Under the pieces are notes generated by a model. It did no database searches, had not been told where the DNA came from, and saw only the letters and a program-made list of their open reading frames with translations. Shown here in pieces: positions 415-54,183 of a DNA stretch of 64,000 nucleotides. This stretch comes from a virus, in the IMG/VR virus record IMGVR_UViG_3300047382_000480, positions 1-64,000 of that record; one strand, given 5' to 3'. Each line of letters begins with the position of its first letter. Position 1 is the stretch's first letter. The translations under genes were made by a program, and so were the position numbers.

Positions 415-1719
415 TCAGAACAAATCCTCGAGTGATGCGGATTCAACAGATGCTGTGGGATGATATGTATCAAGCATCTCTTGACCGCCCTGCTCTTTTA
501 GGTAATCATACCATTCAGTGGATTCCCACATCTTAGAAGATACACCATTCCAGAGAGGACGCCACTCGGGATGTTCCTGATTGAGTCGTCTGTAGTCAAC
601 GAACTGACGACGCAAGTTCTCGTATTCAAACGACCCAAGTAGAGCCATTTTCTCACGAGCATAGGCAACAATCGAGATACGATCAGAATTATCGCCAATG
701 ATTTCAGTATTGCCGTGAATACCATCGTGGTTATTCACAAGAAGAAGATCTCCTGGATGAAGTTCAACAGCAATGCGATACTCGGGAAGTACAAACAAAC
801 ACCCTTCCCAACTCTTTTTGCCATCAGGAGAGATACAGCTGATATTAGAGAAGCCATCTGAGAAGTCACCAGCATCTCTGTGTGCAGCAGTACGGAATGT
901 TCGGTTTACTGTAAGAGTTGTGTATGGTGTTCCAGGAACAACAAAAGCTGGATCAATTTTATCAGTGAATGCCTTTTGCTTTCCATACCTTACAGGGAGC
1001 AACTCTTCAAACTTACGAGACAAAGTCTGCAAATATGGGTACGACTTTGAAAATAACTCAGGATTCTTTTCAGTGTATGCTGTAGCACGACCATATGGTA
1101 TGCGAGGATACCGATCAAACCAACCGCAAATACCAGAATTAACTGTATTTGCATACGAGGTATCAGAGATATAAGTATCAACCATATCTTTTGCTGCAAC
1201 TTTTCGTTCAGCAGGAGACATCGGGCGAACACTTTCGAGCCAATGGTCAAAAAACCCAGTGTATTCAACACCAGCCTTTTTAATTTTTTCTCTCAGCCAA
1301 ACACTACCACGACCACCCCCAGATGGTTTGTGGCGAGCAATAGCATCTTCAATTGCATCAAAGTCACCATCAAGGGAAGAATCAGGGGCAGAGAAGATTG
1401 CGTCAAGGATCTCAGTTTGTAATGGCGTAACCCAGTCTCTATTACCTAACTGCTCTTGCCTTGGACCTGCAGCCATACCACGATTCTGTGTTTCTACTGC
1501 GGCAGGAGCCAACCCTTCCATTGCACCCTCTTGTTCTTCTTTGGAGAAAACTCCCTTACGGAACTTGAAGATTACGTTATGTTCACTGTTTTCCTCAAAT
1601 TTATCGAGGGCATACAAGTCAGTGTCTTCAGTAATGATTTGATCGTATGTGGAGTCATCAAGCCAGCCACCTAGTTTATCATCACAGTTTATCTTTTCAA
1701 TCGTTAGTTCTTTTATCAT
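415..1719 (-). CDS. TET/JBP-family 2OG-Fe(II) dioxygenase (nucleobase oxidase)
   Basis: TAAHRDAGD (HxD), GDLLLVNNH..HGNT (distal His), RISIVAYARE (2OG-binding Arg). Confidence 0.8.
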   Translation of the reverse strand: MIKELTIEKINCDDKLGGWLDDSTYDQIITEDTDLYALDKFEENSEHNVIFKFRKGVFSKEEQEGAMEGLAPAAVETQNRGMAAGPRQEQLGNRDWVTPLQTEILDAIFSAPDSSLDGDFDAIEDAIARHKPSGGGRGSVWLREKIKKAGVEYTGFFDHWLESVRPMSPAERKVAAKDMVDTYISDTSYANTVNSGICGWFDRYPRIPYGRATAYTEKNPELFSKSYPYLQTLSRKFEELLPVRYGKQKAFTDKIDPAFVVPGTPYTTLTVNRTFRTAAHRDAGDFSDGFSNISCISPDGKKSWEGCLFVLPEYRIAVELHPGDLLLVNNHDGIHGNTEIIGDNSDRISIVAYAREKMALLGSFEYENLRRQFVDYRRLNQEHPEWRPLWNGVSSKMWESTEWYDYLKEQGGQEMLDTYHPTASVESASLEDLF

Positions 1720-4714: not shown

Positions 4715-5279
4715 CCTCCCAATTCTTCATTGTCTTGAAATCACCTTTGGAATGCATATTATGACCATGCTCAATTAAAAGACTTTCAAAACCAACATCG
4801 GCACCGACATTTGCATTTTCAGGTTTATCTTCAATCCAATAACAACCACGATATTTTTTACTCAATTCAGCAAGAATCTCGTCTTTATCGGCACCAGTAT
4901 CAAGACAAATAACTTTCTCAAAAGTGTTCTCACCGAATAATTTATTCAGGTTTCTTTCTCGAAGTTTTTGGGCATAAGGATCTAGTGACAGACTAGTGAC
5001 AGCAATAAATTTATATTTATGCTTTTCGTGTAGCTTCTTGATGTAGTATTGAGCATCTCTGAGTGGCGGTAGAAAACCAATCGCAGCAGATTCATTAAAC
5101 ACACTGACGATTTTTCTGGCTTCGGATCTCTTCATATCGAATCTTTGGTTTACACTATAAACCTTTTTGTAATCTTCAATAGGAGATTGTCCTCTGTTTT
5201 CCATCCAAACCATGAACGCCTCTTCCCAGTCGAGGCAAACTCCATCACAATCTGTGAGGATATACTTATCTTTCATCAT
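4686..5279 (-). CDS. HAD-superfamily phosphatase/nucleotidase (T4 30.2-like)
   Basis: ILTDCDGV (DxDG), AVTS, WIEDK motifs; start at MMKDKY after GGAGG. Confidence 0.8.
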   Translation of the reverse strand: MMKDKYILTDCDGVCLDWEEAFMVWMENRGQSPIEDYKKVYSVNQRFDMKRSEARKIVSVFNESAAIGFLPPLRDAQYYIKKLHEKHKYKFIAVTSLSLDPYAQKLRERNLNKLFGENTFEKVICLDTGADKDEILAELSKKYRGCYWIEDKPENANVGADVGFESLLIEHGHNMHSKGDFKTMKNWEDVYNEVTRS

Positions 5280-5473
5280 ACCTCCCACACACTGGAGAGA
5301 TCTTGTTGGATAACATCCCACTCAGCCATTGTTGTTTCGAGAGCATAGTCTCGAAGTTCAGGTCTATCAGCGAACTGCTCATAAACCTGATAAGCCAAAA
5401 TATCAGACGGCTCATTCCAGTTATTTGCAGCCAACTCTTGACACTCAAAAACAAACTGACTCATCTTACTCAT
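5276..5473 (-). CDS. Hypothetical early protein
   Basis: 65 aa, GGAG SD, directly downstream of sigma70 promoter. Confidence 0.7.
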   Translation of the reverse strand: MSKMSQFVFECQELAANNWNEPSDILAYQVYEQFADRPELRDYALETTMAEWDVIQQDLSSVWEV

Positions 5474-5507
5474 AATTATCTCTCCAAGTTATCATTTCAA
5501 TACAGCT

Positions 5508-5536
5508 ATTATACAATAAAACAACGCAAAAGTCAA
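5508..5536 (-). promoter_or_regulatory. Sigma70-type promoter
   Basis: TTGACT-17-TATAAT. Confidence 0.8.
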
Positions 5537-5549
5537 CACTTTTCTTCAA

Positions 5550-5557
5550 TATAAATA
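5550..5557 (+). promoter_or_regulatory. T4-type late promoter
   Basis: TATAAATA about 30 nt upstream of the only plus-strand gene. Confidence 0.7.
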
Positions 5558-5587
5558 GATGAAACATATGTATTAAGTGAGGTTATT

Positions 5588-6106
5588 ATGGAAAGAGCAT
5601 CCCGATTTTTTGCGTTTCGTACAAGGGATGAGTTCTGGATTGTAGACGAAAAGACCCTCCAAGACGTTCCAAAACCAAGAGAAATGCTAATCAAAAAAGC
5701 GAATATAGAATCTATTCGCGAGTATGTTCTCACCCAAAATAAAACAGATTTACCAATCGTTGATAGATGTCGCGACAGAACCGAATGGCATACACCAGAA
5801 GGTCGAGAGAGGATACGCCAAGCCAAACTGGGGAATAAGCACCCCCATAAAAATGGTTTGTCGGATACGCATCGAGAAAGGATCAGTAACACTATGTCAG
5901 GAACTCGTGTTGGTGAATTTAATCCAATGTACGGAAGAAAACATTCTCCCGAAACAATCGCAAAGATCCGTCAAAAAGCATATGAGAGACCGAAGCGAAA
6001 ATGGTGCGTTGAACCAAACGGAAATATGCATCTAATAGAAGCAACAGCACAATTACCAGAAGGATGGCAATGGGGAAGATTTTTTGACCCTTATAAACCT
6101 GTCTAG
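5588..6106 (+). CDS. NUMOD3-motif DNA-binding protein (homing-endonuclease-related)
   Basis: GAGG SD; HTPEGRERIRQAKLG, NPMYGRKHSPETIAKIR NUMOD3-like repeats; C-terminal LPEGWQWGR. Confidence 0.7.
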   Translation: MERASRFFAFRTRDEFWIVDEKTLQDVPKPREMLIKKANIESIREYVLTQNKTDLPIVDRCRDRTEWHTPEGRERIRQAKLGNKHPHKNGLSDTHRERISNTMSGTRVGEFNPMYGRKHSPETIAKIRQKAYERPKRKWCVEPNGNMHLIEATAQLPEGWQWGRFFDPYKPV

Positions 6107-9230: not shown

Positions 9231-10529
9231 TTATTCACAAAAGTCAACATCTTTTTTACATAGGTTGTAAAAGTTTTTTAGTTCAGGGAAGGTTTCGTGC
9301 CAATCAGTTCCCCTTCTAGAATCGTGTTGGTCAACAAAATCAGCAAAATCTTTACGATGTTTGTCGATGTCGTCACAACTGCTATTTTTTACCCAGTCTA
9401 CGCAAGACTTAAATTTAGAGAATTCATAATCGCTAAATCCTAGTTCTTTCATATACAGCAAGGAATCTTGAGCCATATATTTCAGTTCGTCGTCAGCAAT
9501 TGCAGCCGATAGGTGCACAGGACTCGTCATATGAGGTGTGTCAATTATAACTTGGTCAGGATACTTTAGTTGTAACTCTCGTATTTTCTCTAAGAGTTCG
9601 TTGAAATTGGGGATTGAGAGCAAACAAAACGTAACCATAAACCCTATCTTTTCGCCTGCATCTAGTAACTTATACAAATTACTTTCAAATAGTTCTAGAT
9701 TCAATCCGTGACGTATCCACTCAGCCTGCTTACCCCAAGAATCTATGCTCACATAAACCTTGGAATCCAGACCCTCGCTCGCCTCGATGTATTTGTTAAT
9801 CCTGCGTTCTGAGACACAGAGATTACTATTGACGTGAAATTCAATTGGTTTTGGATTACAGCGTATGTAGTCTATTAGACGATAGACGTGGTCGGATAAG
9901 AATGGTTCGCCACCTGTGACACGCAAAGTATCTAAGTGTTCATATGCTTCAGGGAACCAATCCCAAAACTTTTTTATGTAAGGATTAGTTTCTTCCTCAT
10001 ATAAAGTCCACCCTGCGTCTAAACTATACTGCTTTTTATTATCTTCAGAAAGGTCATAATCACCATGCTCTTTCATTTCGTTAAACCACGCTGAGCTTTT
10101 TTGCGGTGCGCAATAACTACACTTCAATTGACAGCGATTGCTGAAACTCAACTCAAGGTATTTTGGATAAACATTTTCATTCCAAGGGATTTTTGCAGTA
10201 TCATCTATGATGTCTAACGACATTTTCTTTTTCAAAAACATTGTAGTTAGAACTTGCCGTGGAGATGCAATATCACCAGTATCCTCAAGATCCCAGCAAC
10301 GAGAACACTCTGATGGTTTACCGCCTTCCAACATTGTTTTTCGTTGCTGTTTCTTGAAATCCGTATTATGTAGGTCTTGATCTAAATTTAGATTGTGTGG
10401 CGGGCAGTGGTAACAAGACATGTTGATGCCCTCTGCTAGATGCATCTCAGCATGCCACCATTTCAAAATACAAAACCCAGAACCTTTAGAATCGTTCTTG
10501 GATTTTACTACATCAAAAAGACCATCCAT
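9231..10529 (-). CDS. Radical SAM protein (N-terminal twitch-type Cys cluster)
   Basis: CQLKCSYC (CxxxCxxC), TGGEPF, N-terminal C..CYHC..CSRCW. Confidence 0.85.
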   Translation of the reverse strand: MDGLFDVVKSKNDSKGSGFCILKWWHAEMHLAEGINMSCYHCPPHNLNLDQDLHNTDFKKQQRKTMLEGGKPSECSRCWDLEDTGDIASPRQVLTTMFLKKKMSLDIIDDTAKIPWNENVYPKYLELSFSNRCQLKCSYCAPQKSSAWFNEMKEHGDYDLSEDNKKQYSLDAGWTLYEEETNPYIKKFWDWFPEAYEHLDTLRVTGGEPFLSDHVYRLIDYIRCNPKPIEFHVNSNLCVSERRINKYIEASEGLDSKVYVSIDSWGKQAEWIRHGLNLELFESNLYKLLDAGEKIGFMVTFCLLSIPNFNELLEKIRELQLKYPDQVIIDTPHMTSPVHLSAAIADDELKYMAQDSLLYMKELGFSDYEFSKFKSCVDWVKNSSCDDIDKHRKDFADFVDQHDSRRGTDWHETFPELKNFYNLCKKDVDFCE

Positions 10530-14236: not shown

Positions 14237-14441
14237 TGAAGGTTTCATCCCATTCAGTTAGTGATTGTGAAAGTTCTAATAATTCTGTGTAGCCACCGAT
14301 ATGCTTTTCTCCCGCATAAATTTGTGGGACACTACCAGTTTCTTGATATTCTTCTTGGAATTCTATTTCCATGCCATTTAAAAATTGTTTTGCGTCGTTA
14401 CAGAAACTGCAGTTGTCTCTAGAATATATTTTAACTAGCAT
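14229..14441 (-). CDS. nrdC: Glutaredoxin
   Basis: CSFC, SVPQIY, IGGYTEL. Confidence 0.88.
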   Translation of the reverse strand: MLVKIYSRDNCSFCNDAKQFLNGMEIEFQEEYQETGSVPQIYAGEKHIGGYTELLELSQSLTEWDETFNG

Positions 14442-15037
14442 TAGTTTGTTCCTTTATCTTGTTTATTAATTTGGGTGAATGCCCATTCTCTTTCTTTACA
14501 CCATGGGCAGTATCCACACCTACCCTCATCGAGTTCAGTGCAGCTGTGGGTTATATCCATAATGTCGTCGGCAATACCTAAATCAAAACCTAGCTGAACG
14601 ACCTTATCTTTAGTCATATCAGCAAATGGTTGTCTTACAATGTGTTCGAAAGGAGTATCTTTGGTTCCACCCCTATCATGGTCAGCGTGCATTTCATCAT
14701 AATACGCAGTCATTGCAACATACACTATGTCTGCATATCCCCTTGACAATATTTCAGCAACACCGCTTTTAACATAGTCCGAGGGATTCTCAGAGTCGAC
14801 TTGTCCCACCACAGTAGGATCTGCGTCATAACCTGAGTTCTTCAGGACTTTTTTTGCGTATTTTAATGCGCCATCAATTTTTGGGACAGTGTATGGTTTA
14901 CAGATTTGACCACGTTTCTTACATTCTTCGTAAATTATATGCCAAAGAACAGCACTATCCCAACCACCTGAAACACAAACTGCTATGCGTTTGCCATCAG
15001 GTATATCATCCCTCACACGCGATACAAGTTTCTTCAT
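14441..15037 (-). CDS. QueC-like PP-loop ATPase
   Basis: SGGWDS PP-loop; THSC...CGYCPWC zinc motif. Confidence 0.7.
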   Translation of the reverse strand: MKKLVSRVRDDIPDGKRIAVCVSGGWDSAVLWHIIYEECKKRGQICKPYTVPKIDGALKYAKKVLKNSGYDADPTVVGQVDSENPSDYVKSGVAEILSRGYADIVYVAMTAYYDEMHADHDRGGTKDTPFEHIVRQPFADMTKDKVVQLGFDLGIADDIMDITHSCTELDEGRCGYCPWCKEREWAFTQINKQDKGTN

Positions 15038-16805
15038 CAATTAATGCCTGCATATCAATTTCTTTGATCACGTTTCGCTCAATGCGCTTTGAGACTCTGT
15101 CGGCTTTACCTAGTTTTTCGGATCTACAATAATAAAGAGTTTTTAACCCTTGTTTCCATGCTAAATAATGAATTGCGTGAAGGTATTTGATATTCACGTC
15201 AGGACGGAAGAATAGATTGAGAGACTGGGCTTGGTCAATAAATGCCTGCCTATCTGCTGCATGCTCAATCAACCATCTCTGATCAATTTCCATTGAGGTC
15301 TTGTATATATATTTTTCATCATCTGTAAGACATTTCAAGTGTTGGACTGATCCATCATTTGCAATTATCGACGACCAAGTTTCGTCATAATCCAACTTTT
15401 TGTTTTGATCACATTTATCTTTAATGAGAGCATCAAGATACTTATTTTTGTTAAGAAAAGCTCCCGATAAAGTATCCTGTCTATAGGCATTCGCTCTAAA
15501 AGGTTCAATAGAAGGCGAAGTGTTTCCCATAATAATAGAGGAGGAAGCATTAGGAGCGATAGCCATAACATGACTAAATCGTTTGCCTGTTCCCACAGCG
15601 TCTGGGGCTTCTCCTCTCTGTTTACCCAACTGAATATTTGCTTCATCTAATTTACTCCTAACAAGTCTAAACATACGCATATTCGCACCTTTGGCGACTG
15701 CACTTTCCCAAGCGATACCCTTTCTTTGAAGATATGCGTGAAAACCTAGTGCACCAATACCAATAGAGCGTTCACGAGTCGCACTAAATTTTGCTCGTGA
15801 TACAGAGTCTGGAGCATTGTCGATAAAATATTGTAGCACATTATCAAGCATTTCTGCGGTATCTTTCAAAAACATAGGATCTTTTGACCAAGCATCATAA
15901 TTTTCTAAGTTCACAGAGGAAAGGCAACAAACAGCAGTTCTTTCTTCGCTTGTTGGTAAAATAATCTCTGAACAAAGATTAGACTGATGAATCTTAAGAC
16001 CGAGTTCTTTTTGGAACTCTGGCATTTGGCGATTACTTTGATCGATGAAATGTATGTATGGCTCACCTGTTTCCATTCGTAATTCTAGGATCTTTTGCCA
16101 AAGGTCTTTTGCCGATACTGTTTCTCGTATAGCACCTGAATGCGGATCTAGTAAGTTCCAACCATCATCTGCATCTGGATCTTGCATACAGCGTTCAACA
16201 ACTTCCATGAATCTATCGCTAATATTGATGCCATGATGAAGATTAAGCGCACGCATATTGGGATCGCCAGTCGGCTTACGCATCTCCAAGAACATCATAA
16301 TGTCTGGATGTGATATATCCAAATATGCAGCATAACTTCCACGTCTAGTCTTACCTTGACGATACGCAAGAGAAGAAGCATCATACGTTTTTAGGTGAGG
16401 CATAACACCAGTAGACTTATCGTCGGATGCACGTATACCAAAACCAATACCAACACCACCGCCAAGCATAGATAACCAAGCTGTTTCGCTGAAATTTTGA
16501 ACAAGACCTTCAGCGGTGTCTTCGATATAATTCAAGAAGCAAGAGATAGGCATACCACGCTTTGAACGACCATAAGAAAGGATCGGTGTAGAATACGATA
16601 GCCAATGTTTACTACTATAATCATATAGTCTTTGTGCGTGTTCTGGATTTGACGAGAACGATTTACTCACATATGCAAACCTCTCTTGAGGTGTAGTTTC
16701 TTCGTCTCGCATATAACTTTCTTGAAGACGTTGAAGACCTAATTTATCAAATAAATCGTCACGAGATTCATCAATCTGAATCCCCATATATTCTCGTTTT
16801 GCCAT
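15006..16805 (-). CDS. nrdA: Ribonucleotide reductase class Ia alpha subunit
   Basis: PISCFL, GGGVG, SNLCSEI, IAPNASSS, KTLYY, C-terminal CIACEG. Confidence 0.96.
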   Translation of the reverse strand: MAKREYMGIQIDESRDDLFDKLGLQRLQESYMRDEETTPQERFAYVSKSFSSNPEHAQRLYDYSSKHWLSYSTPILSYGRSKRGMPISCFLNYIEDTAEGLVQNFSETAWLSMLGGGVGIGFGIRASDDKSTGVMPHLKTYDASSLAYRQGKTRRGSYAAYLDISHPDIMMFLEMRKPTGDPNMRALNLHHGINISDRFMEVVERCMQDPDADDGWNLLDPHSGAIRETVSAKDLWQKILELRMETGEPYIHFIDQSNRQMPEFQKELGLKIHQSNLCSEIILPTSEERTAVCCLSSVNLENYDAWSKDPMFLKDTAEMLDNVLQYFIDNAPDSVSRAKFSATRERSIGIGALGFHAYLQRKGIAWESAVAKGANMRMFRLVRSKLDEANIQLGKQRGEAPDAVGTGKRFSHVMAIAPNASSSIIMGNTSPSIEPFRANAYRQDTLSGAFLNKNKYLDALIKDKCDQNKKLDYDETWSSIIANDGSVQHLKCLTDDEKYIYKTSMEIDQRWLIEHAADRQAFIDQAQSLNLFFRPDVNIKYLHAIHYLAWKQGLKTLYYCRSEKLGKADRVSKRIERNVIKEIDMQALIDEETCIACEG

Positions 16806-41582: not shown

Positions 41583-42239
41583 TTAGATTACTGAGTTTGG
41601 TTCTAGAGCCAACCAGTATTTAAGAGTTCCTGCTTCGTTCTCAAGGAACATAAACTTCTTTTGCGACAAGACGATCTTGTATGAATCCGCAATAACTTTG
41701 AAGTTCTCAACAGCAAGGCGACAATCAAACTCTTTATCAGTTTCTCCAATAACCTGACGGAAGGTATTGCTACGAGGTGTTGAGGGATCGCCAACAGACA
41801 ATGTAACCTTACCATCACGACCAACAACACTCATTACAGGTGCGCTGATAACAGATGCTGCACGGCTGATGTTTGTTACCTCATCTTTACTCAGAGAAAA
41901 CTCATAGAAGTTATCTACTTCAATAGTCTTGTCGGGAGCAGCAACAATAATTGAAGGGTCTGCATAATAATACTCAAACTCTGCACCACTGCTGTTGATT
42001 TTAAGACTCTCATCGCCAAGATCCAGATCTGGATTTTCAGTGAATGTAAGCAAACCTAACAGACTATTCAAGTCATAGATAGCAAACTCTTTGTCAAAAG
42101 ACTCGGACACTGTAGCACGAGAGAATATATTCTTGCCATTAGAAATCGTGGCAAGGGTGTTACCTTCACGAACTAGGATGTTCGTGTTAATCGTTGCGAA
42201 GTTTTTTAGGACTTCAAGGGTTGGTTTAGAAATGTTCAT
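41583..42239 (-). CDS. 45: Sliding clamp (gp45)
   Basis: LKNFATIN, FAIYDLN, YWLALE; synteny. Confidence 0.93.
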   Translation of the reverse strand: MNISKPTLEVLKNFATINTNILVREGNTLATISNGKNIFSRATVSESFDKEFAIYDLNSLLGLLTFTENPDLDLGDESLKINSSGAEFEYYYADPSIIVAAPDKTIEVDNFYEFSLSKDEVTNISRAASVISAPVMSVVGRDGKVTLSVGDPSTPRSNTFRQVIGETDKEFDCRLAVENFKVIADSYKIVLSQKKFMFLENEAGTLKYWLALEPNSVI

Positions 42240-42275
42240 AATATAAGTTTCCTCTTTCTTTCACTTAGTTTCATA

Positions 42276-42304
42276 ATAATAAATCAATCATACATAAAAG
42301 TCAA
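42276..42304 (-). promoter_or_regulatory. Sigma70-type promoter for gp45 operon
   Basis: TTGACT-17-TATTAT. Confidence 0.65.
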
Positions 42305-42612
42305 GCACTTTCTTCAAAATACTCAATATTAATTTCAAATCCATCTTTAGCCTTGTCGGTGAAATCGATATCCATTGATTTCAACTCGTCAAACAGATTT
42401 TGATCTTCAGACCTTCCAATAACAGTTAGCGTTAATCCATCAACACTAAATTGATATTCTAATTTTACTTTACCGCTGTCAACATGACGACGAAAAATAC
42501 TCCTTGCGAGTTCGGCTTGCGGTCCACCCCAAGTATCAGCCCCAGAAAGAAAAATTTGTGAGAGATCTTTTCGTGTAACAGATATTTTCACACAGTAATT
42601 TGTTGAAGACAT
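42301..42612 (-). CDS. Hypothetical protein
   Basis: 103 aa, overlaps upstream gene; last gene of the lipid cassette. Confidence 0.6.
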   Translation of the reverse strand: MSSTNYCVKISVTRKDLSQIFLSGADTWGGPQAELARSIFRRHVDSGKVKLEYQFSVDGLTLTVIGRSEDQNLFDELKSMDIDFTDKAKDGFEINIEYFEESA

Positions 42613-43181
42613 TGCTTTACCTCATTTTCATAATCGCTAAAATCGATATACATCGCAGTTTGTTCTGTAAATTTATAATTAACCTTTGTATCAAAGGTCT
42701 TAATTTTAGGAACAAAAGACAAATATTTATTTTTTCTGACATTCATATATGCAATTGTAGCTTTTGCTCTCCAAAGATTATGATCGTTTAAGAAGAACAC
42801 TGCAGCCCGATAATTATCTTTTATTGCACGGATAAATGTGTGCTGAATTAATTTTCTCATCAACTGGATTCTTTCTTTCATTCCGAGATCGGTTGAAATA
42901 TATAACCGAACTGGGAAAACTGCTATTGAGTCATCTTGCTCAAAAGGATAACACCCAACACCGCAAACATATTTACCATCTTTTTCATAAACAAAATACC
43001 CACCATTTTCACAATCATATATCTTCTGAATAAAGATTTGATTGAGAACAGTTTCTGGGCGATTTTTCCAATCTAACACCTGCACATTTTCTGCAGTTAG
43101 ATCATCGCTAAACTCAGCAATTTTACACATATCAAACAATTTCTTGTCTTTTTCACAACTGCTATCTATTCTTACGAACAT
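42588..43181 (-). CDS. Possible GNAT-fold acyltransferase
   Basis: YFVYEKDGKYVCGVG strands, VRLYI, helix, AVFFLNDHN; lacks canonical R/QxxGxG. Confidence 0.4.
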   Translation of the reverse strand: MFVRIDSSCEKDKKLFDMCKIAEFSDDLTAENVQVLDWKNRPETVLNQIFIQKIYDCENGGYFVYEKDGKYVCGVGCYPFEQDDSIAVFPVRLYISTDLGMKERIQLMRKLIQHTFIRAIKDNYRAAVFFLNDHNLWRAKATIAYMNVRKNKYLSFVPKIKTFDTKVNYKFTEQTAMYIDFSDYENEVKQCLQQITV

Positions 43182-43935
43182 CCAAAAACCTTATGAAAAA
43201 CTGATATGGCGAATCAAAAAACCCAAACTGTGCCTTTCCTGGATTATCGTGATGATTCTTATGGTACAACTCACCAACATAAAATATACTTAACCATGGA
43301 ACATTAATCGGTTCTTTTTTTAGATGACCAAAGATGTTTAATGTAACTTGGAAGATGTATGCGACCGCAATAAACGAAGCCCAGAACCCTCCTAATCCAA
43401 CTGCAAACATAAATGCAGCAGAGAGTATACCAAACTCCCAATACCACCTTGCTTGTAGTAGATACAGTTTGTCTCTTATCATCCACCTTGGAACCATATT
43501 AACAGGTGGAACATTATTAAAGACCATAAAATTATCAAAGATACTATGAACATTTCCATGAGGATCTTTTTCTGTATCAGTATGCTTGTGGTGTTGCCTG
43601 TGTATTCCTGCCCATCCCATACAGGGAGTGAGTAAGAAAAATGTTATCAATACCACAGTCAAAACCTCAACAAATCTATTTGGTTGCCAAGACTTATGTG
43701 AGCAGTAACGATGTTGAAACCCAGAGACAAAATATCCCACAAGAAGATTACTTAGTACTGCCCAAACAAAAACTTCTAAGAGTGATAATTTTGTTATCCA
43801 AAATACTGATGCGACAAGACAAGCTATGTACACAGCAGTGTGAACATATCCTGTTTTATTTCCTATAAACTTAGTCAAAGGAGCATTCAAACTTGCTTTC
43901 AAAAAAGCAAGGATAGTTATAATTGTAAGCATCAT
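43162..43935 (-). CDS. Membrane fatty acid desaturase (delta-9-like)
   Basis: Three His boxes HRYCSH, HRQHH(..D...DPH), HKNHH; TM helices. Confidence 0.9.
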   Translation of the reverse strand: MMLTIITILAFLKASLNAPLTKFIGNKTGYVHTAVYIACLVASVFWITKLSLLEVFVWAVLSNLLVGYFVSGFQHRYCSHKSWQPNRFVEVLTVVLITFFLLTPCMGWAGIHRQHHKHTDTEKDPHGNVHSIFDNFMVFNNVPPVNMVPRWMIRDKLYLLQARWYWEFGILSAAFMFAVGLGGFWASFIAVAYIFQVTLNIFGHLKKEPINVPWLSIFYVGELYHKNHHDNPGKAQFGFFDSPYQFFIRFLDVRKNR

Positions 43936-45092
43936 ACTCGTAAAACTATTGAAGAAGACCTTCCACCAAATGCAAACGAATTCTTCAATGCCAGTTTCCC
44001 ATTAACATTCTTTTTATATTTATAGACATATTCTAGATCGCAGTCTTGAATATTGAAATTTGCAGGTATAACAGAATCACGAAGGCACATCAAAGTATAA
44101 ATTGTTTCATTAATTCCACTAGAAGCAAGGGAATGACCAACCTTTGATTTAAAGCTGACAATAGGTTTGTTTGGAACTACCTTTTGAATTGCATCATATT
44201 CAAGGTCATCACCAATCGGTGTTGATGTTCCGTGCGCATTAATGAATGCGATATCGCCTTGGAGGTCTTTGGTAACATCTTTCATAGAAGCAATTGCGCC
44301 AGTCATATTTAGATCTGGAGATGTAGCACTACCTAATGCGCCATCTGTATGGTGCGCGATTGATTCAATGTACCCAAGTATATTAGCACCTCTCGCCAAA
44401 GCAGTAGACTCTTTTTCTAGCAACAGACAACCAGCACCCTCTCCCATGATGAACCCATCTCGGTTTTTATCAAAGGGGCAGGACTTTGTTCCCAGTGCAC
44501 CTAACTGAGAAAACAGATACATCTCATCTTCTACAGCAGGAGTATCTGTACCACCAACAACTACAAAGTCGTGTGTTTTAAGTAAGTGTGTCGCGTAGTC
44601 TAGAGAATATAGACCAGTTGCGCATGCGCCATCCATACTAACACAAGCACCACGAAAGTCAAATGCCTTTCCGATCAACCCAGCTGTAAAATCTTTTAAG
44701 TATTGAACGGAAGTTCTTGGGGATAGTCTTCTACCTTTATGCAATCTAGTAGAAAATGTTGTAGCCTGAGTTTCGGGTTTAGTCGCAAGGGAACTGAAAA
44801 CAACAGCGACATTAGTGCTGTCAATATCTTTAGTAGCTTCCTTGACTACGTGCAAGGCATTTTTAGATGCAACTGAAATTGAAGTATGTACTGGTTTTCG
44901 CACACCTTCAGGAATAGCATAATCAACTTCCATTGCCTTGAAACACTTTAAACCTTTGATAACATCAATATCTGTTTCAAACTCAATAGGCTCAATGTAT
45001 TCATCGCTCATCAGTCTAGCGTAACATTCTCCTGGAGAAGTCCCAAGAGTATCAACCATACCTAATCCTGTTATCACAATTTTATCGGTCAT
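43932..45092 (-). CDS. Beta-ketoacyl-ACP synthase (FabF/FabB-like)
   Basis: IVITGLG, ACATG (Cys), PFDKNRDGFIMGEGAG, INAHGTST (His), KSKVGHS (His), NSFAFGG. Confidence 0.92.
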   Translation of the reverse strand: MTDKIVITGLGMVDTLGTSPGECYARLMSDEYIEPIEFETDIDVIKGLKCFKAMEVDYAIPEGVRKPVHTSISVASKNALHVVKEATKDIDSTNVAVVFSSLATKPETQATTFSTRLHKGRRLSPRTSVQYLKDFTAGLIGKAFDFRGACVSMDGACATGLYSLDYATHLLKTHDFVVVGGTDTPAVEDEMYLFSQLGALGTKSCPFDKNRDGFIMGEGAGCLLLEKESTALARGANILGYIESIAHHTDGALGSATSPDLNMTGAIASMKDVTKDLQGDIAFINAHGTSTPIGDDLEYDAIQKVVPNKPIVSFKSKVGHSLASSGINETIYTLMCLRDSVIPANFNIQDCDLEYVYKYKKNVNGKLALKNSFAFGGRSSSIVLRV

Positions 45093-45104
45093 AATAAAAC
45101 TCGT

Positions 45105-45533
45105 CTATAGATGTTCAAAAAACTCATACATATTTAGGAAGTCTCCGTCAAGCGAAGGAATATTTTCTATATCAATGTTTGGTCTGTTTTTAAATTCAGC
45201 CTCAACATCATCTTTTTTGTAAAACGATGCTATACTATTATGTGAATTGTAATCGTCAGCATTCACATAAAAAAGATAATCTGCAGTAGTGGCGTGGAAA
45301 TAACGAAGAACAGACATTTTTCCTTTCACGGGATCATCGTCGCACTTCCCCTTCGCTACCGCATATCCATTATCAAAAGAAATTTGGGTCGCCAGAGAAG
45401 AAGACTCAGTGTCTGTTATATTAATAACGACAATCCGCTCATGAGGAGAGGAGTTTGAGTTCACGGATTTCAAACACCGATCTAACTTCTCTGGCTTCCC
45501 ATTGGTCAAAACCGCAACCAAAACTTTAGACAT
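45105..45533 (-). CDS. Short GT2 glycosyltransferase-like protein
   Basis: VLVAVLT...KLDRCLKSV...IVVIN...YLFYVNADD resembles the GT-A N-terminal half; only about 140 aa. Confidence 0.45.
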   Translation of the reverse strand: MSKVLVAVLTNGKPEKLDRCLKSVNSNSSPHERIVVINITDTESSSLATQISFDNGYAVAKGKCDDDPVKGKMSVLRYFHATTADYLFYVNADDYNSHNSIASFYKKDDVEAEFKNRPNIDIENIPSLDGDFLNMYEFFEHL

Positions 45534-45807
45534 CTTCGTGTTCTCTATCGTGAACGTGAAGAGCAATCAAACCATAATGCAAAACTTTCAACAAGTCTTT
45601 GCGATTATATCCATCTTTGTTACCATAGCGTTGAGCATATTTCATAATATTACCGATACAAAACCCTTCGCCATGACCACCATCAATAATAAACTCGGTG
45701 GCTTGAAATTTATTTCTTGAGTAATGTTCGCCATATGTAGCATCAACATACTTTTGAAGGTCAGCCATCAACTGACCTTCGTTATATTTGTAATCAACCG
45801 CCATCAT
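45526..45807 (-). CDS. DUF3310-like protein
   Basis: TYGEHY, GFCIGNIMKYAQRYGNKDG...DLLKVLHY. Confidence 0.75.
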   Translation of the reverse strand: MMAVDYKYNEGQLMADLQKYVDATYGEHYSRNKFQATEFIIDGGHGEGFCIGNIMKYAQRYGNKDGYNRKDLLKVLHYGLIALHVHDREHEDV

Positions 45808-46961
45808 TATTCCCCGAACAATTCGTCAAGTTCTGTTTCTGAAGCCAAAGGTATTTCTTCGTCACCTAACGCATCAGCATCAACCTTAGTATACAGATCA
45901 ATGAACGCAGCACGAGTATCTTCGTCAAAACGATTTACGCACATCTCTATCGCTTTCAATCGATCATCAAACATAGCATAAGCATTCACGATATGTTCAA
46001 TACGACGAGTTGATACGAGGTCATCAATAGCACCCTCAGCAAAAGTTTTTCGGATAACATCAGCCCAGCGAACTAGTTTCTCAGCAAAGTCTTCATCTAC
46101 TTTACCCACACGATGCATTTTACCCATAACAATTCTCTTTTCTTGAGACTCAGAAGGGAACTTTTGTTCGATAGTGATAGCAAAACGCTCAAGGAATGCT
46201 TCATCTAGAATCTGTGCCGAGATAAACTTACCATCATCCGAGCCACGACCTTTCGTATTAGCAGTAGCGACAACATTGAAGCCAGCTGAAGGATGAACCA
46301 TCTCACCAGTTTTCTTATTGAAGTATGGTTTACCCTCAAGGATGGCTTGCAAACACATCAACTTGTTAGAACCACGATCCAGCTCATCAAGAATCAAAAC
46401 AGCACCACGCTTCATCGCAGTCAAAACTGGACCCTCGCGATAAACAACATTTCCGTCAACTAGCGTATTACCACCGATCAAATCGTCTTCATCGGTCTCA
46501 ACAGAAATGTTAACACGGATCGCTTCACGTTTCAGTTTAGCACAGATTTGCTCAACCATGGTTGTTTTACCATTACCTGACAAACCAGAAATAAACGTGG
46601 GATAGAACAGACCAGATTTTACGATTTTGGCTAGATCTCGGTGGAAACCAAACGCCACATATGTGGGATCAACCACTGGGATAAGGTTATCAACCTTCAC
46701 TGCAAGTTTAGCTTGAGTCACTAATTTTTCATCCTGTACAGGGGCAGGGGTCGGAACAGGGGCATTATTGCTTTGAACAATTTTCAACCCTGCTGCATCA
46801 ACAGCATATTTGTTGTAACCCACTTTGTTCTCACGAAAAAACCAATGCGGGTATGGAATATCAAGACCTTGTTGTATCTCAACGATTTCAGGTCGGCTAA
46901 ATGTCTCTTTGTTTTGAAGCTTCAGTGCTTCAAGTAACTTCTCACGATTCAACTTACTCAT
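45807..46961 (-). CDS. cobS: MoxR/CobS-like AAA+ ATPase
   Basis: GLSGNGKT, LILDELD, ATANTKGRG, AFLERF, VSTRR. Confidence 0.88.
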   Translation of the reverse strand: MSKLNREKLLEALKLQNKETFSRPEIVEIQQGLDIPYPHWFFRENKVGYNKYAVDAAGLKIVQSNNAPVPTPAPVQDEKLVTQAKLAVKVDNLIPVVDPTYVAFGFHRDLAKIVKSGLFYPTFISGLSGNGKTTMVEQICAKLKREAIRVNISVETDEDDLIGGNTLVDGNVVYREGPVLTAMKRGAVLILDELDRGSNKLMCLQAILEGKPYFNKKTGEMVHPSAGFNVVATANTKGRGSDDGKFISAQILDEAFLERFAITIEQKFPSESQEKRIVMGKMHRVGKVDEDFAEKLVRWADVIRKTFAEGAIDDLVSTRRIEHIVNAYAMFDDRLKAIEMCVNRFDEDTRAAFIDLYTKVDADALGDEEIPLASETELDELFGE

Positions 46962-46992
46962 AACATAATCCTCTCTCATCAAGTTATAATAT

Positions 46993-47021
46993 ATTATCGC
47001 TCATTTCAATCCAAAAGTCAA
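46993..47021 (-). promoter_or_regulatory. Sigma70-type promoter
   Basis: TTGACT-17-GATAAT. Confidence 0.65.
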
Positions 47022-49270
47022 GCGATTTTTTCAATAAATTTACCTAAAAATTTGCGCGATGTTGACTTAGTTTTTTGGAACTTTCTGAAACCACGAACAA
47101 GATCTCCCTTCTTATCGCTATTTACTTCCAACTCACTTTCTTCACCAAGATCTCTAGAACGCAAAACAAACGCAGTCGGGAAACCATCAAGACCATCGAC
47201 TTGAATATACCCATCAGGCAACCATTCAGATTTCCACTTCTTATCGAACTCACCTTCACTCTGCCAACCATAAATGTTTTTATATTTTTCTTTGATTTGG
47301 CTTCGTGTGGCATCAGAAAGGAAGTAGTTTACAGTCCGAGACCCAGTTGTTCTATCGTAGTGCTTGATTAAAGTTCTACAAACAACGTCATTGAATCTAG
47401 GGTAGTAAATACGATCTGCACCCTTATCGCTGATAGTCGTTATACCATTCTCTCTGATAGCGACACGATCTTTACCATAACCATAAGACCTTGTAACCGC
47501 ATGCTGATTACCCAAACCAATATGACCAGTGTTACCGCCATCAGTTAGGAACAAAGTATTCAGAACATCAACACGATTGTTATTTCTAAAGTCGATAGCG
47601 ATATCTCTCAATAACAATACCATAGAATCCAGCGGTGTACTGCCCAGACATAGGTGTTTCGGTATAGCATATTGGTCACAGTAAGGCAAACCACTCATAC
47701 GTGTCTTGTAATTACTGTACGAAGAACCAATCATAAGCATTGTCTTATGAGCATTTTTGTGTGCCGACGAGGACATACCCGAATGCAGTAGTCGGTTTAT
47801 CAACAGATCCGATTCAACTAACTGGACATCTCCATCCTTTTGATTATCTAGCTTACTGCCAATGTCTGGGTCTTTGTTGTGACCAGTAGTGAACGAATAG
47901 ACTTCGTATGGGATATTCACTTTACGACAAAAGGCAACCTGAAGAAGCATTTGTTCAATAGTGGCTTGAACCTTTTCATACATTGACCCAGAGAAGTCAA
48001 CAACCATAAGCATACCATGATTCTTTCCATCAGGAGTAACTGTGCTAGATAAGAAAACATCTTCAGTGAGTTTAGTCGCCCACAACTTATTCATATTCAA
48101 GTCGCCAGTTTTATGCTCACGGGACTTTGCCAATTGATTTGCTTTACGTTTTGCTTCAAACTGAGAGACCATTAAATTAAGGAATGGTCTGTTTTTCTTG
48201 TTGAAATTATTTACCAACATGGAACCAGCTTCATCAAAACTGATTGTATCGCCATCATCATACCAACGGCTAGAATGTCTACCGCTAACATAAAACTCAT
48301 TATCATTTCTAATAGCTTCGTCAACACCATCCAAAGCATTCATATTGACGAACTTAGTATAATCTAAATTCTTAGGAAAGTCTACCCAGTGAATATCGCC
48401 TTCATTTTTGTGATCAATCAGCTTTTCTTCGTTATCACGAAAGTTTTGATCTGTTACAGAGACAGGCTCATCAGAATACTCATTATCTAAGATAGAAGTC
48501 GAGTCTTTTTCTTCGCCTTCTTCATCATCAGAAGTTTCAAGTTTTTCACCCGAATCCTGCTGTTGCTCAGATTCAGCGGAGTCATCAGAATCGTGTTCTT
48601 CGTTTTGATCTTCTTCGCTCGGTTGACTGTCAGGACTTTCTGATTCTACTGGCTCATCATAGTCTCCCTGCTCAGGATCACCATGGAACGCATCAGGTAA
48701 CTCTTGATCAACATCCTCAGTCTCAGCATAAGCATAAAGTTTTTCAGCAACCTTAACAACATCGTCCCAACTTTCAGTAGAAGAAACGAGGTCAACAAAC
48801 TTTTGCTCCTCGTCAGTAAACTCTATGTTAGCAAACATACCGACTTTGAAGAAAAGATTTATGCGGTCAATCAGGGGATAATCGTTGATGTCGTTCTCAC
48901 CAAGACCAAAAAAGTCCATCTCATACAACTCACGATATCCTTTGAAGAAACTCTTTGTGAGTCCTGGAAAACGATTTTTGATGTCTCGCTCAATACGAGC
49001 ATCTTCAACGACATTAAGGAAAGACTTGAAGCCACGACCCTTTGTTTCTATCGAGTCGTGCCATCCTTCAAGTGGGGTGTTCAGCGCATGACTAACTTCG
49101 TGACCAATGAATAGGTCATACATCTCTGGGCTGATGTCAGATTTTAAAATAGGAAGAACAACCTTTCGGTCTTTAAGGTCAAAATATGCAGTTGGCACAT
49201 TCTTATGCTCAAGGCTGACATTCTCAGTAGCGAGCAATTTTGCTAGTGTACTTTTACGTTCAATATCCAT
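47018..49270 (-). CDS. Metallopeptidase-like plus vWA protein (CobT-like AAA+ partner)
   Basis: HEVSH, NVVEDARIE, acidic linker, DFSGSM MIDAS, TPL, FLTDG. Confidence 0.85.
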   Translation of the reverse strand: MDIERKSTLAKLLATENVSLEHKNVPTAYFDLKDRKVVLPILKSDISPEMYDLFIGHEVSHALNTPLEGWHDSIETKGRGFKSFLNVVEDARIERDIKNRFPGLTKSFFKGYRELYEMDFFGLGENDINDYPLIDRINLFFKVGMFANIEFTDEEQKFVDLVSSTESWDDVVKVAEKLYAYAETEDVDQELPDAFHGDPEQGDYDEPVESESPDSQPSEEDQNEEHDSDDSAESEQQQDSGEKLETSDDEEGEEKDSTSILDNEYSDEPVSVTDQNFRDNEEKLIDHKNEGDIHWVDFPKNLDYTKFVNMNALDGVDEAIRNDNEFYVSGRHSSRWYDDGDTISFDEAGSMLVNNFNKKNRPFLNLMVSQFEAKRKANQLAKSREHKTGDLNMNKLWATKLTEDVFLSSTVTPDGKNHGMLMVVDFSGSMYEKVQATIEQMLLQVAFCRKVNIPYEVYSFTTGHNKDPDIGSKLDNQKDGDVQLVESDLLINRLLHSGMSSSAHKNAHKTMLMIGSSYSNYKTRMSGLPYCDQYAIPKHLCLGSTPLDSMVLLLRDIAIDFRNNNRVDVLNTLFLTDGGNTGHIGLGNQHAVTRSYGYGKDRVAIRENGITTISDKGADRIYYPRFNDVVCRTLIKHYDRTTGSRTVNYFLSDATRSQIKEKYKNIYGWQSEGEFDKKWKSEWLPDGYIQVDGLDGFPTAFVLRSRDLGEESELEVNSDKKGDLVRGFRKFQKTKSTSRKFLGKFIEKIA

Positions 49271-52167: not shown

Positions 52168-53228
52168 TATATATTCTTTGCTTCTACATAAAGACCTTTG
52201 ACTACATCCTTGAGTCTATTTCGGTCTAGGTCAGTGTGAATGTTGTCGATGTATTCATCAAGCAACGTGATCGTATCTTCAAGATTGAGGTTATCTGCGT
52301 CAATAGCTTCATCCTCGAACTCAGAGAAGTCTTCTATTATTTTTATCTCAATCAAATTACAAGATTCGAGCCTATCTATAAAGGAATCAAACTTAGAAAA
52401 ATCGCTTTTGTTTACTACAACTACTTTAACTGAACCCCCGACAATCCTATCATAATCGATAGCATCAATATCTGTTCCCATAGAATCGTCTGCGTCGTTA
52501 TAGTAGAATTTATGAAAGATGTTAAACGGATTTTCAATAAACTCAAGCTCATTTGTTTTCGTATCGTAGATATGAAACCCTCTAGGATCATCATAATCGC
52601 TCCATGTAATTTCGTAAGGATTGCCAAGATAGGTGATGTTTCCGTTACTGCTTCGGTGATGAAAATGACCAGAACACACTAACTCAAACTTGTTAAAAAT
52701 CGAAGGATCCATCCCATGATCGTTTGAATGACCTTTATACATCTGGAAACCAGATAACTCGTAATGCCCAAAACAAACTTCAGCATCTGTTTCGTCAATA
52801 GCTTCCATGGTTTGTTTGTAGTTATCGGAACATATCCAAGGAGTAAAAAGAATATCTCTATTGTCAAAAGATATCGTAGTTACCTCTGGGTAGATTGTGA
52901 TGTTATCGTAATCCTTTAACAACAACTCTGGTGAATTAACTTCATTGGTATTCTTAAAATATGTATCGTGATTTCCAGGAATCATATGCATATCAATTTG
53001 CATTTCTTTTGCTTTATCAAAGAAATACTCTCTACACTTTTTGTATGTGTTGAAGTTAATAAACTTTCTGCGATCGAAAATATCACCCAAGTGGATGACT
53101 GTTTTAATCTGACGTTTTTCTAGTTCGGGAAAAAACTTTTCAGTGTAAAATTTCTCAAAGAAATTATCGAAAGGTATGGAGTCAGATCTAGCACCAAAGT
53201 GCGTGTCGGTAATTAATGCTATTTTCAT
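52167..53228 (-). CDS. 47: Recombination endonuclease subunit gp47 (Mre11/SbcD-like)
   Basis: TDTHFG, HLGDIFD, GNHD, GHFH. Confidence 0.95.
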   Translation of the reverse strand: MKIALITDTHFGARSDSIPFDNFFEKFYTEKFFPELEKRQIKTVIHLGDIFDRRKFINFNTYKKCREYFFDKAKEMQIDMHMIPGNHDTYFKNTNEVNSPELLLKDYDNITIYPEVTTISFDNRDILFTPWICSDNYKQTMEAIDETDAEVCFGHYELSGFQMYKGHSNDHGMDPSIFNKFELVCSGHFHHRSSNGNITYLGNPYEITWSDYDDPRGFHIYDTKTNELEFIENPFNIFHKFYYNDADDSMGTDIDAIDYDRIVGGSVKVVVVNKSDFSKFDSFIDRLESCNLIEIKIIEDFSEFEDEAIDADNLNLEDTITLLDEYIDNIHTDLDRNRLKDVVKGLYVEAKNI

Positions 53229-53644
53229 TTCATATATTCCTTGATTCGCGATCTCAAAATTACCAACCTTTGTTCAGTAAGGTTCCAATCAGAAACACGA
53301 TAATCAAACTTCTCAGGTTCTTGAAATACTTTATTTGTATCTTCAAATCTACTTTGTTTGATGGTATCCATCCATATCATAAAGTCAGGATGGAAAGTTT
53401 TTCTTGCTTCCTCTGTAGGACAAACAAAATCTACGATTGCAACTTTACCTGACCTCACAACACCATCCGCTAAATAACACATTCTTTGCGCTTGCCTCAA
53501 ACGACCCTCGTCGCTAAAATCCCAATCATCATATTCTTCTCTGACTTGATCAGCGTTTATATGAACACTCTCAAAGATTCCACAAAGAGCTTCGGCAAGA
53601 GTTGTCTTACCAGATCCAGGAAGACCCATTATCAGGATCTTCAT
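53225..53644 (-). CDS. Adenylylsulfate kinase-like P-loop kinase
   Basis: GLPGSGKTT, INADQVR, DFSDEGR, DFVCP, FQEP. Confidence 0.65.
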   Translation of the reverse strand: MKILIMGLPGSGKTTLAEALCGIFESVHINADQVREEYDDWDFSDEGRLRQAQRMCYLADGVVRSGKVAIVDFVCPTEEARKTFHPDFMIWMDTIKQSRFEDTNKVFQEPEKFDYRVSDWNLTEQRLVILRSRIKEYMK

Positions 53645-54183
53645 GCAGCATAATACCAATCTGGAGTGTCACGCTTAGTCCAAACAGCCATCTTGGCTTT
53701 AGCGATGCGATAGTATTGACGATATGCTTCTATAGAATCTGATTGCTTGAATTCATCTGGCATAGCTTGAGGCATTTTCGTCATTGGACCAGATTTAATC
53801 CCTTCTGGTGGTTTATTTAGGATATGCTGCAACTTTTGTTGCGTTAGGTGCACTTTTCCATATCGGTATGTATACTCTTTACACAACTCTTGCCACAAAG
53901 AATGAAGCCACATATAGTTACTGTGAGATTCTCGAGCCCAAATACCAGATGGGTGATTGACGTGTGACGCTTTGTATAAAATTTGATCTTGCTCTGGGTT
54001 TGGGTGTTCCCATCTAGCAATTTTACGACCAGAAGAAGTTTTGTCGTACCATTGAGTTCCGTCAATAACACGATGTGCTGTTGACATAAGTTGAGCATAT
54101 TCGATAATCATCTTGACGACATGCTTGTCAAGGTGCTGTTTAGCAGCAGTTTCATAGTTCTCATGCAAGTAAAATATATTCAT
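53641..54183 (-). CDS. Pyrimidine dimer DNA glycosylase-like protein
   Basis: MNIFYL...DKHVVKMIIEYAQL, HVNHPS, EYTYRYGKVH, QAMP, AYRQYY. Confidence 0.75.
   Translation of the reverse strand: MNIFYLHENYETAAKQHLDKHVVKMIIEYAQLMSTAHRVIDGTQWYDKTSSGRKIARWEHPNPEQDQILYKASHVNHPSGIWARESHSNYMWLHSLWQELCKEYTYRYGKVHLTQQKLQHILNKPPEGIKSGPMTKMPQAMPDEFKQSDSIEAYRQYYRIAKAKMAVWTKRDTPDWYYAA

Follow-up and report, generated by a model that had tools for sequence, protein, structure and literature searches.

The 64,000-nucleotide stretch analysed here (the window) forms the first 64 kb of an IMG/VR virus record of 138,660 bases (IMGVR_UViG_3300047382_000480; CheckV completeness 86%). Between cobS and gp45 it carries an island of five open reading frames (ORFs) which, in the order in which they are read, encode a remnant of a family 2 glycosyltransferase (GT2), a FabF-like beta-ketoacyl synthase (KS), a membrane fatty-acid desaturase, a divergent protein with a predicted GNAT fold and a small fast-evolving protein. 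The minus strand is used throughout the region, the junctions between the cassette ORFs are overlaps of 4, 20 or 25 nt or a gap of 12 nt, and the GC content of the cassette (0.34-0.40) resembles that of the rest of the window. An earlier note on this DNA, made from the sequence alone, had read the genes as a lipid-tailoring cassette with which the phage elongates and desaturates host acyl chains on acyl carrier protein (ACP) and may transfer the product to an acceptor.

The KS gene (43932..45092) encodes 386 amino acids and was assigned from Pfam, from FabF structures in the PDB and from its conserved catalytic residues. Both KS domains were recognised (PF00109 at 1.1e-24, 87.9 bits; PF02801 at 3.8e-20, 72.5 bits; cut-offs 20.8), and the best solved relatives are FabF enzymes (2.4e-40). 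The Cys-His-His triad that the earlier note had described is intact (Cys157, His287 and His320, together with Lys315), and C157, H287, T289, T291, K315, H320 and F375 are conserved in 55 of 55 related short KS and in 19 of 19 cellular rows; we take the roles of the triad, the lysine, the HGTST threonines and the gating phenylalanine to be those of E. coli FabF. On these residues the KS looks catalytically whole. It resembles FabF/KAS II (B. subtilis 4LS5, E. coli 1KAS/2GFW) in its two thiolase-fold domains, in the triad and lysine, and in the threonine pair, the phenylalanine gate and the NSFxFGG loop. In contrast to FabF/KAS II, to which it is about 31-34% identical, the phage KS is shorter (386 versus about 412 amino acids), shares loop deletions of 4, 6, 4 and 4 residues with the other short KS, falls in a separate clade, and lies outside any fab operon with no ACP nearby. 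None of the NCBIfam KS models reaches its cut-off with the window KS, the best of them, TIGR03150 (fabF), scoring 214.9 bits against a cut-off of 493.75.

The relatives of this KS are found in metagenomes and viral contigs. A word-based search of 5.8 billion proteins gave about 60 metagenome clusters (339-412 amino acids, 33-79% identity), with named cellular FabF ranking next at 31-34% identity over the full length. In a pattern scan of 185,579 species genomes (one genome each), the cellular KS among the matches listed were ordinary FabF only, with identities of at most 34% over the full length and 37% over part of it. A phylogeny against FabF and FabB had been proposed in the earlier note as a check, and a tree of 74 rows (55 short KS, 18 cellular FabF-like matches and E. 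coli FabB, with rows under 340 amino acids excluded, cellular matches thinned, and no NodE, polyketide synthase or mitochondrial KS included) bears out a separate clade as far as this sampling goes: the 55 short KS group together (SH-like approximate likelihood ratio test, SH-aLRT, 100), their common stem measuring 0.7 changes per column, and the window KS lies outside the sampled cellular FabF. The clade appears, from these comparisons, to be virus-specific. A tblastn search of 50,697 phage records matched the KS in 28, all below 35% identity; by their names and identities these look like ordinary bacterial fabF/fabB in phage-labelled records, and they were rejected as kin. The DNA of the cassette had no match in the same 50,697 records.

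No ACP had been seen in the window, and this now extends to the whole 138,660-base record, whose six frames contain no match to PF00550. No other family of fatty-acid synthesis was found among the 149 ORFs scanned with Pfam, out of 173 in the record of at least 55 amino acids, and the ORFs of 78-91 amino acids that follow the KS in five viral loci (L005, L006, L008, L025 and L039) gave no ACP match at E<=0.01. Because the phage carries no ACP, the likely partner of the KS is the ACP of the host, as the earlier note had supposed.

The desaturase gene (43162..43935) encodes a short membrane fatty-acid desaturase of the stearoyl-CoA desaturase (SCD)/DesC type, of 257 amino acids where its relatives have about 239. 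It matches PF00487 (36.7 bits; cut-off 29.7) and retains all three His boxes, as had been noted, i.e. HX4H, HX2HH and HX2HH plus NX3H, in the forms HRYCSH, HRQHH, HKNHH and NIFGH. The ten putative ligands (H75, H80, H112, H115, H116, N200, H204, H225, H228 and H229), whose metal-binding roles we take to be those of such enzymes, are invariant in all 14 aligned sequences. The only solved relatives are mouse and human SCD1, the alignment (SCD1 4YMK) spanning HRYCSH and HRQHHKHTDTEKDPH and, weakly, HKNHH. The His boxes are flanked by hydrophobic stretches (Kyte-Doolittle >1.6) at about 29-75 and 168-203, with a further one at 87-112. Judged by its ligands, the desaturase looks catalytically whole. 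Desaturases of this His-box membrane type act on acyl-CoA or acyl-lipids and not on acyl-ACP, so that the desaturation of acyl-ACP proposed earlier is not upheld, and the KS and the desaturase would therefore work at different stages.

The desaturase family consists of 25 metagenome clusters at 42-70% identity, of which the full-length ones have 238-253 amino acids; the next match is at 29%. In tblastn against the phage records (E<=0.001) the only match was to Pelagibacter phage Mosig, with none to a cyanophage. The FA_desaturase-domain protein of Mosig EXVC030M (Mosig_00080), the sole relative on a cultured phage, is 33% identical and has the same His boxes; unlike the window desaturase it is 216 amino acids long, has no adjacent KS, and lies among hydroxylase, aminotransferase and reductase genes near tail fibre genes. 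That block of Mosig (L098, 53732-66340) also holds Asp/Arg hydroxylases, aminotransferases, an FMN reductase, a peroxiredoxin, a taurine dioxygenase, radical-SAM-like genes and a carbamoyltransferase.

We scanned IMG/VR for the arrangement of these genes, which gave 40 loci with the KS, 52 with the desaturase and 13 with an alignment of the GNAT-fold protein (a single-sequence scan of viral contigs with the latter had found no relative); some loci are one contig counted twice. Of the desaturase loci, all 13 in which the desaturase is at least 52% identical to that of the window have the KS immediately before it, on the upstream side, and none of the 39 others has a KS. The same adjacency occurs in L004 and in L103-L109 (seven contigs with KS 39-42% identical), for a total of 21 distinct IMG/VR contigs. 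Three arrangements were found. In type A, the full order DUF3310-GT2-KS-desaturase-GNAT-small protein-gp45 recurs on 11 contigs (L106 begins within the KS, and L043 and L044 are identical), so that the synteny survey suggested in the earlier note came out positive. Type C (10 contigs) has the KS-desaturase pair without GT2 or GNAT, and type B (L110 and L111) has GT2, GNAT and small protein without KS or desaturase. In a tree of 36 KS from these loci, type A sequences fall in two clades, and the clade with the window KS nests with type C KS (SH-aLRT 100). From the three types and the KS tree it follows that the KS-desaturase pair and the GT2-GNAT-small protein trio behave as two shuffled modules.

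A further 34 loci (L007-L040) have KS that are 34-43% identical to that of the window and no desaturase in the DNA examined. In five of them (L008, L014, L019, L025 and L039) the KS, at 34-36% identity, adjoins a DUF7695 protein, an AAA ATPase and a GDSL-lipase-like ORF. On either side of the more distant KS-desaturase pair of L004 (737-6336) are genes for two 2OG-Fe(II) oxygenases, a PhyH-like dioxygenase and an FkbM methyltransferase, and a sulfotransferase-like gene. In L001, alone among the cassette contigs with ORFs listed, a gene for a 266-amino-acid fusion of an APS-kinase-like P-loop domain and a cytidylyl/adenylyltransferase-like domain (5201-6001) stands between GT2 and KS; the window has a separate APS-kinase-like ORF at 53225-53659.

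The cassette proteins are more diverged than their surroundings. Against contigs whose cobS, gp44 and gp45 are 85-94% identical to those of the window, the KS is 70-71% identical, the desaturase 67-68%, the GNAT-fold protein 52-55% and the small protein 29-39%. In the L103-L109 group, the identities fall to 39-42% for the KS and 28-38% for the desaturase, with flanks at 73-97%. Pairwise ratios of non-synonymous to synonymous substitution (dN/dS) are 0.08-0.14 for the KS and 0.08-0.11 for the desaturase, compared with 0.04-0.09 for the core genes cobS, gp44 and gp45; the ratio for the GNAT gene is 0.077 (L001 versus L043) and that for the small protein 0.17-0.69. These ratios are rough, since dS is near saturation (0.7-2.8, and undefined for the GNAT comparisons that involve the window). 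With that qualification, they indicate that the KS and the desaturase are under purifying selection.

The fourth gene of the cassette (42588..43181) encodes 197 amino acids with no match in Pfam, PHROG or NCBIfam. Its assignment as GNAT-like in the earlier note is supported at the level of the predicted fold: the AlphaFold2 (AF2) model, from eight sequences, has a mean confidence (pLDDT) of 82.6 and a GNAT fold, with 329 Foldseek matches at E<=0.001, 186 chains at Z>=8 in VIA (best 13.4) and Atlas TM scores of 0.64-0.66. The matches of the model by Foldseek and VIA are to generic acetyltransferases only, and no long-chain N-acyltransferase stands out among them. The L001 homologue matches PF00583 at 21.6 bits (cut-off 20.7), and 93 relatives (E<=0.001) came from searching 1.84 billion representatives with a profile, 11 of the 70 scanned matching PF00583 at E<=0.01; the profile had no match among PDB sequences. 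By eye, in the alignments, the Q/RxxGxG/A pyrophosphate loop after strand 4 is not obvious, with R92 invariant, a longer loop after it and a variable Gly at position 100. The N-acetyltransferase-domain protein of Mosig was compared as a possible relative and appeared unrelated (hhalign probability 0.5%).

The small protein (42301..42612; 103 amino acids) remains of no known family, as the earlier note had it, with no match in Pfam, PHROG or NCBIfam. It follows the GNAT gene wherever looked for, with homologues in L001, L041, L043, L104, L105, L107, L108, L110 and L111, and an alignment of nine sequences has M1, Y6, R14, F21, D58 and G59 invariant. Its AF2 model, of low confidence (pLDDT 70.3), is a ferredoxin-like beta-alpha-beta-beta-alpha-beta arrangement with no Foldseek match at E<=0.001; weak fold matches include the ABM/DABB proteins SnoaB and olivetolic acid cyclase, with an Atlas TM of about 0.6 to ABM-like models and a feature score of just 0.77. 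The predicted complex of the GNAT-fold and small proteins scored 0.13 against a mark of 0.32 and speaks neither way. A 116-amino-acid ORF that follows the desaturase in type C contigs was rejected as a relative (hhalign probability 0.2%).

Upstream of the KS, the kinship of the short ORF with GT2 was borne out, although it is longer than had been described: it extends to 45566 with a TTG start (45105..45566; 153 amino acids), the previously given 45533 being an internal ATG, and its domain is truncated. It has no Pfam match itself; the L001 homologue matches PF00535 (3.8e-10, 40.4 bits), and in nine cassette contigs and two type B contigs with ORFs listed, GT2 has 261-299 amino acids. Residues 1-118 are 63% identical to 1-118 of the 267-amino-acid GT2 of L043, and 131-149 weakly match 220-238 of the latter. 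The remnant keeps the N-terminal nucleotide-sugar half with DDY; compared with its relatives, about 100 residues are missing from the middle and about 29 from the C-terminus. By this alignment, the ORF is a deletion derivative of GT2.

On its upstream side the cassette does not adjoin cobS directly, as had been thought, because a DUF3310 gene (45526-45807; PF11753, 1.6e-10) intervenes; otherwise the five co-oriented ORFs between cobS and gp45 stand as described. The DUF3310 gene is the constant upstream neighbour of the island, preceding KS or GT2 in all three types of arrangement. Beyond it, all on the minus strand, are the CobS-type AAA ATPase gene cobS (45807-46982) and a cobT-like gene (47018-49270), and on the downstream side gp45 (41583-42239), then peroxiredoxin and gp44. 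A candidate sigma-70-like promoter of gp45 (42276..42304, minus; TTGACT-17 nt-TATTAT, matching 10 of 12 consensus positions) has the stop codon of the small protein within its -35 box and marks the 3' limit of the cassette. TTGAC and TATAAT-like boxes lie upstream of gp45 in all ten contigs printed (the window, L001, L041, L043, L104, L105, L107, L108, L110 and L111), and in the same ten a GAAAGAAAGAGGA ribosome-binding site precedes gp45 in the same register (window 42240-42304, minus). A second such promoter upstream of cobS (46993..47021, minus; TTGACT-17 nt-GATAAT, 10 of 12) is a lead only, as the region has 16 promoter-like sites against 17.5 in shuffled sequences, i.e. no excess; it may start an early unit of cobS, DUF3310, GT2, KS, desaturase, GNAT and small protein.

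Contigs from independent marine runs cover 42216-44278 (X3) and 44704-45649 (X4) with 0 differences, the latter bridging the KS, the GT2 remnant and DUF3310. Two metatranscriptome libraries contain 100%-identical contigs at 43051-43311, 43837-43987, 45442-45645 and 44722-44885; gaps in this coverage carry no weight either way. Over the 70 nt at 42216-42286, depth reaches 2485 in run X3 and 661 in X4, well beyond that of the neighbouring sequence, so that this piece is common to many related phages in those samples.

The record (38.5% GC) has by Pfam the genes of a T4-type myovirus, namely gp23, gp43, gp41, UvsW/X/Y, gp46/47, ribonucleotide reductase, ThyX, terminase, sheath and baseplate, together with Tet/JBP, radical SAM, QueC, peptide deformylase, Hsp20, a MazG-like protein and PhoH, and with CsgF/CsgG, a CHASE2 cyclase, a carbamoyltransferase and sugar epimerases. 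The major capsid protein shares 69.9% identity with its counterpart in Pelagibacter phage HTVC008M and 69% with the one in Methylophilales phage Melnitz, whereas gp45 is just 43% identical to cyanophage gp45. Judged from the capsid, the T4 core and the curli genes, a trait that Zaragoza-Solas 2020 mentions for pelagimyophage genomes, the phage is pelagimyophage-like (HTVC008M-like, T4-type). The stretch was found, whole or in part, in seawater and other marine metagenomes (20 rows from 18 studies, with seven of the rows holding at least half of its words).

Three other neighbourhoods of the record were also noted. On the plus strand, 126775-132969 of the record (G000; L097 2775-8969) encodes CsgF, CsgG, a FecR-domain protein and a CHASE2-adenylate/guanylate cyclase, a block that joins parts of curli secretion with a signalling enzyme on a phage. 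The gene for a Tet/JBP 2OGFeDO oxygenase (window 415-1719, minus; 1e-19) is close to those for a dCMP deaminase, a UDP-glucose dehydrogenase-like fragment and a 5'-nucleotidase-like protein, a setting suggestive of hypermodified DNA bases. At 9231-10529 and 14441-15040 (minus), the window encodes a radical SAM protein and a QueC-like protein, the latter suggesting 7-deazaguanine chemistry.

The earlier note had supposed that a condensing enzyme has little precedent in phages. This does not hold, as fabF and stearoyl-CoA/delta-9 desaturase are named as pelagimyophage lipid genes, absent from cyanomyophages, in Zaragoza-Solas 2020 (PMC7029224). Compared by description rather than by sequence, those phages and the window have the same two kinds of gene in HTVC008M-group T4-like phages, and the record likewise carries 2OGFeDO and peptide deformylase genes among its replication genes. 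The text of that paper ties the lipid genes to freshwater PMP-D without curli or radical-SAM genes, whereas the present record is marine and has CsgF/CsgG and a radical-SAM gene. The sections of that paper concerned, one sentence and two table rows, give no account of the island, the order of its genes, the KS clade or its variability, and our search of the literature found no description of the five-gene island or of a viral KS clade. In its counts of viral genes at 1,000 m, another report includes fabG, fabF and fabZ (PMC10653327). The basic observation is thus already in print as annotation, and no new mechanism is demonstrated here. Cyanophage desaturases (vFADs) were shown in Roitman 2017 (PMC5776448) to be delta-9 lipid desaturases acting on C16. 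Like the window desaturase they are phage-borne membrane enzymes, proposed there to alter host membrane fluidity; unlike them, the present family is shorter (238-257 amino acids), is coupled to a KS and has no cyanophage match by tblastn.

We read the KS and the desaturase as a linked viral auxiliary lipid pair that acts on the host's carrier protein and membrane lipids, with the GT2, GNAT and small-protein genes separable from it, in an accessory island of marine pelagimyophage-like phages; we put the probability of this reading at about 0.6. Starting from the integrity, conservation, linkage and selection of the genes, we infer their substrates, regiospecificity and benefit to the phage as follows. 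The KS would be a working decarboxylating condensing enzyme that extends acyl chains with host acyl-ACP and malonyl-ACP. The desaturase, predicted to be a di-iron, four-helix SCD/DesC-type membrane enzyme, would add a cis double bond, probably delta-9, to the acyl chains of membrane lipids or to acyl-CoA with the help of host electron donors. During infection, the two enzymes together could keep up or alter the host's fatty acids in their supply, length and degree of unsaturation. The GT2 (truncated here), the GNAT-fold protein and the small protein would be a second, separable module that has the island, and probably an early transcript, in common with the lipid pair. The lipid reading of the earlier note is thus retained for whole, linked and selected lipid enzymes that use host ACP, but not for acyl-ACP desaturation or a joint acyl transfer.

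Several observations weigh against our reading. The KS scores far under the FabF equivalog cut-off and has loop deletions, and its substrate may therefore differ from that of FabF. Its end branch is long (0.3 versus about 0.1 in its nearest kin) and the window GNAT gene has a dN of 0.36-0.38, as against 0.175 for L001-L043, which with the truncated GT2 may reflect relaxed constraint in the window genome. The five-gene order is kept over very deep divergence, which could mean one pathway. Furthermore, the contigs from the RNA libraries may be carried-over DNA, and no tRNA genes were found in the record, which leaves no clue to the host from that source.

The first alternative is that all five genes form one pathway, in which a special acyl chain made by the KS and desaturase is passed by the GNAT-fold protein to an amino acceptor, itself built or glycosylated by the GT2, to give an N-acyl lipid, a glycolipid or a signal. 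Its logic resembles that of Nod-factor synthesis by NodC, NodE, NodF and NodA. The persistence of the order on 11 contigs, with identities as low as 39% for the KS and 28% for the desaturase inside flanks at 73-97%, would fit such a pathway, as would the overlapping ORFs and the lack, by eye, of a canonical GNAT loop. However, the two modules occur apart, as KS-desaturase on 10 contigs and as GT2-GNAT-small protein on two, which leaves a joint acyl-transfer pathway unsupported; the GNAT model resembles generic acetyltransferases only, so that the transfer of an acyl chain to an acceptor suggested in the earlier note finds no backing; and a membrane His-box desaturase would not take acyl-ACP. 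The GT2 is truncated here, and the KS, desaturase and GNAT genes have dN/dS near 0.1 in two related genomes, with the window GNAT comparisons saturated. We consider one pathway unlikely. Slightly harder to credit is a variant in which the five genes are a fast-diversifying unit that makes an acylated glycoconjugate or aminolipid, with a chain from KS and desaturase, attachment by the GNAT-fold and small proteins and a sugar from GT2. If it were true, divergence within constant flanks would point to an arms race at the cell surface, e.g. superinfection exclusion or receptor masking; the literature search found no such lipid-building module for phages.

It is improbable that, rather than feeding bulk membrane lipid, the KS makes a short, specialised product or primes a different route, to a cofactor or a secondary metabolite, with the small ferredoxin-like protein as a possible cyclase- or oxygenase-like helper. 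The remoteness of the KS clade from cellular FabF, the 34 loci with a KS and no desaturase, and the ABM/DABB proteins among the weak fold matches of the small protein are what this explanation would lead one to expect. Yet fabF is still the best family match, the FabF-type catalytic and gating residues are all kept, the record holds no ACP, acyltransferase, reductase or thioesterase of a dedicated pathway (in the six-frame and Pfam scans given above), and the small-protein model is of low confidence with no significant Foldseek match. Just as improbable is that the island is decaying cargo in this genome, with the GT2 broken, the rest drifting and little effect on infection. The GT2 has lost about 130 residues where the GT2 listed for relatives have 261-299, the KS end branch is long, and the cassette proteins share no more than 29-71% identity with lineages whose core genes are at 85-94%. 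Against decay, the KS, desaturase, GNAT and small-protein ORFs are all open, the catalytic residues are all kept, the KS and desaturase of the window have pairwise dN/dS of 0.08-0.14, and in each of two independent marine runs parts of the stretch are covered with 0 differences. That an assembly chimera or host contamination put bacterial fab genes into a phage contig, which the earlier note had named as a possible refutation, has no point in its favour and is practically excluded by the recurrence of the same flanks and order on 11 other IMG/VR contigs, by the contigs from independent runs that bridge the KS-GT2-DUF3310 junctions and the stretch from small protein to KS with 0 differences, by the GC content of the cassette, and by the lack of a close cellular relative among the matches listed from the 185,579 species genomes.

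The contrast between the cassette, at 28-71% identity, and its flanks, at 73-97%, marks a recombination-prone island that merits study as a model for the turnover of accessory genes. The apparently virus-specific KS clade offers a simple way to test whether a phage enzyme can work on host ACP. Among the viruses of the sea, those that infect SAR11-like and other streamlined marine bacteria rank with the most abundant. If the KS and the desaturase are indeed working enzymes, fatty-acid length and unsaturation would be reprogrammed in a large share of infected ocean bacteria, in parallel with the supposed role of the cyanophage desaturases.

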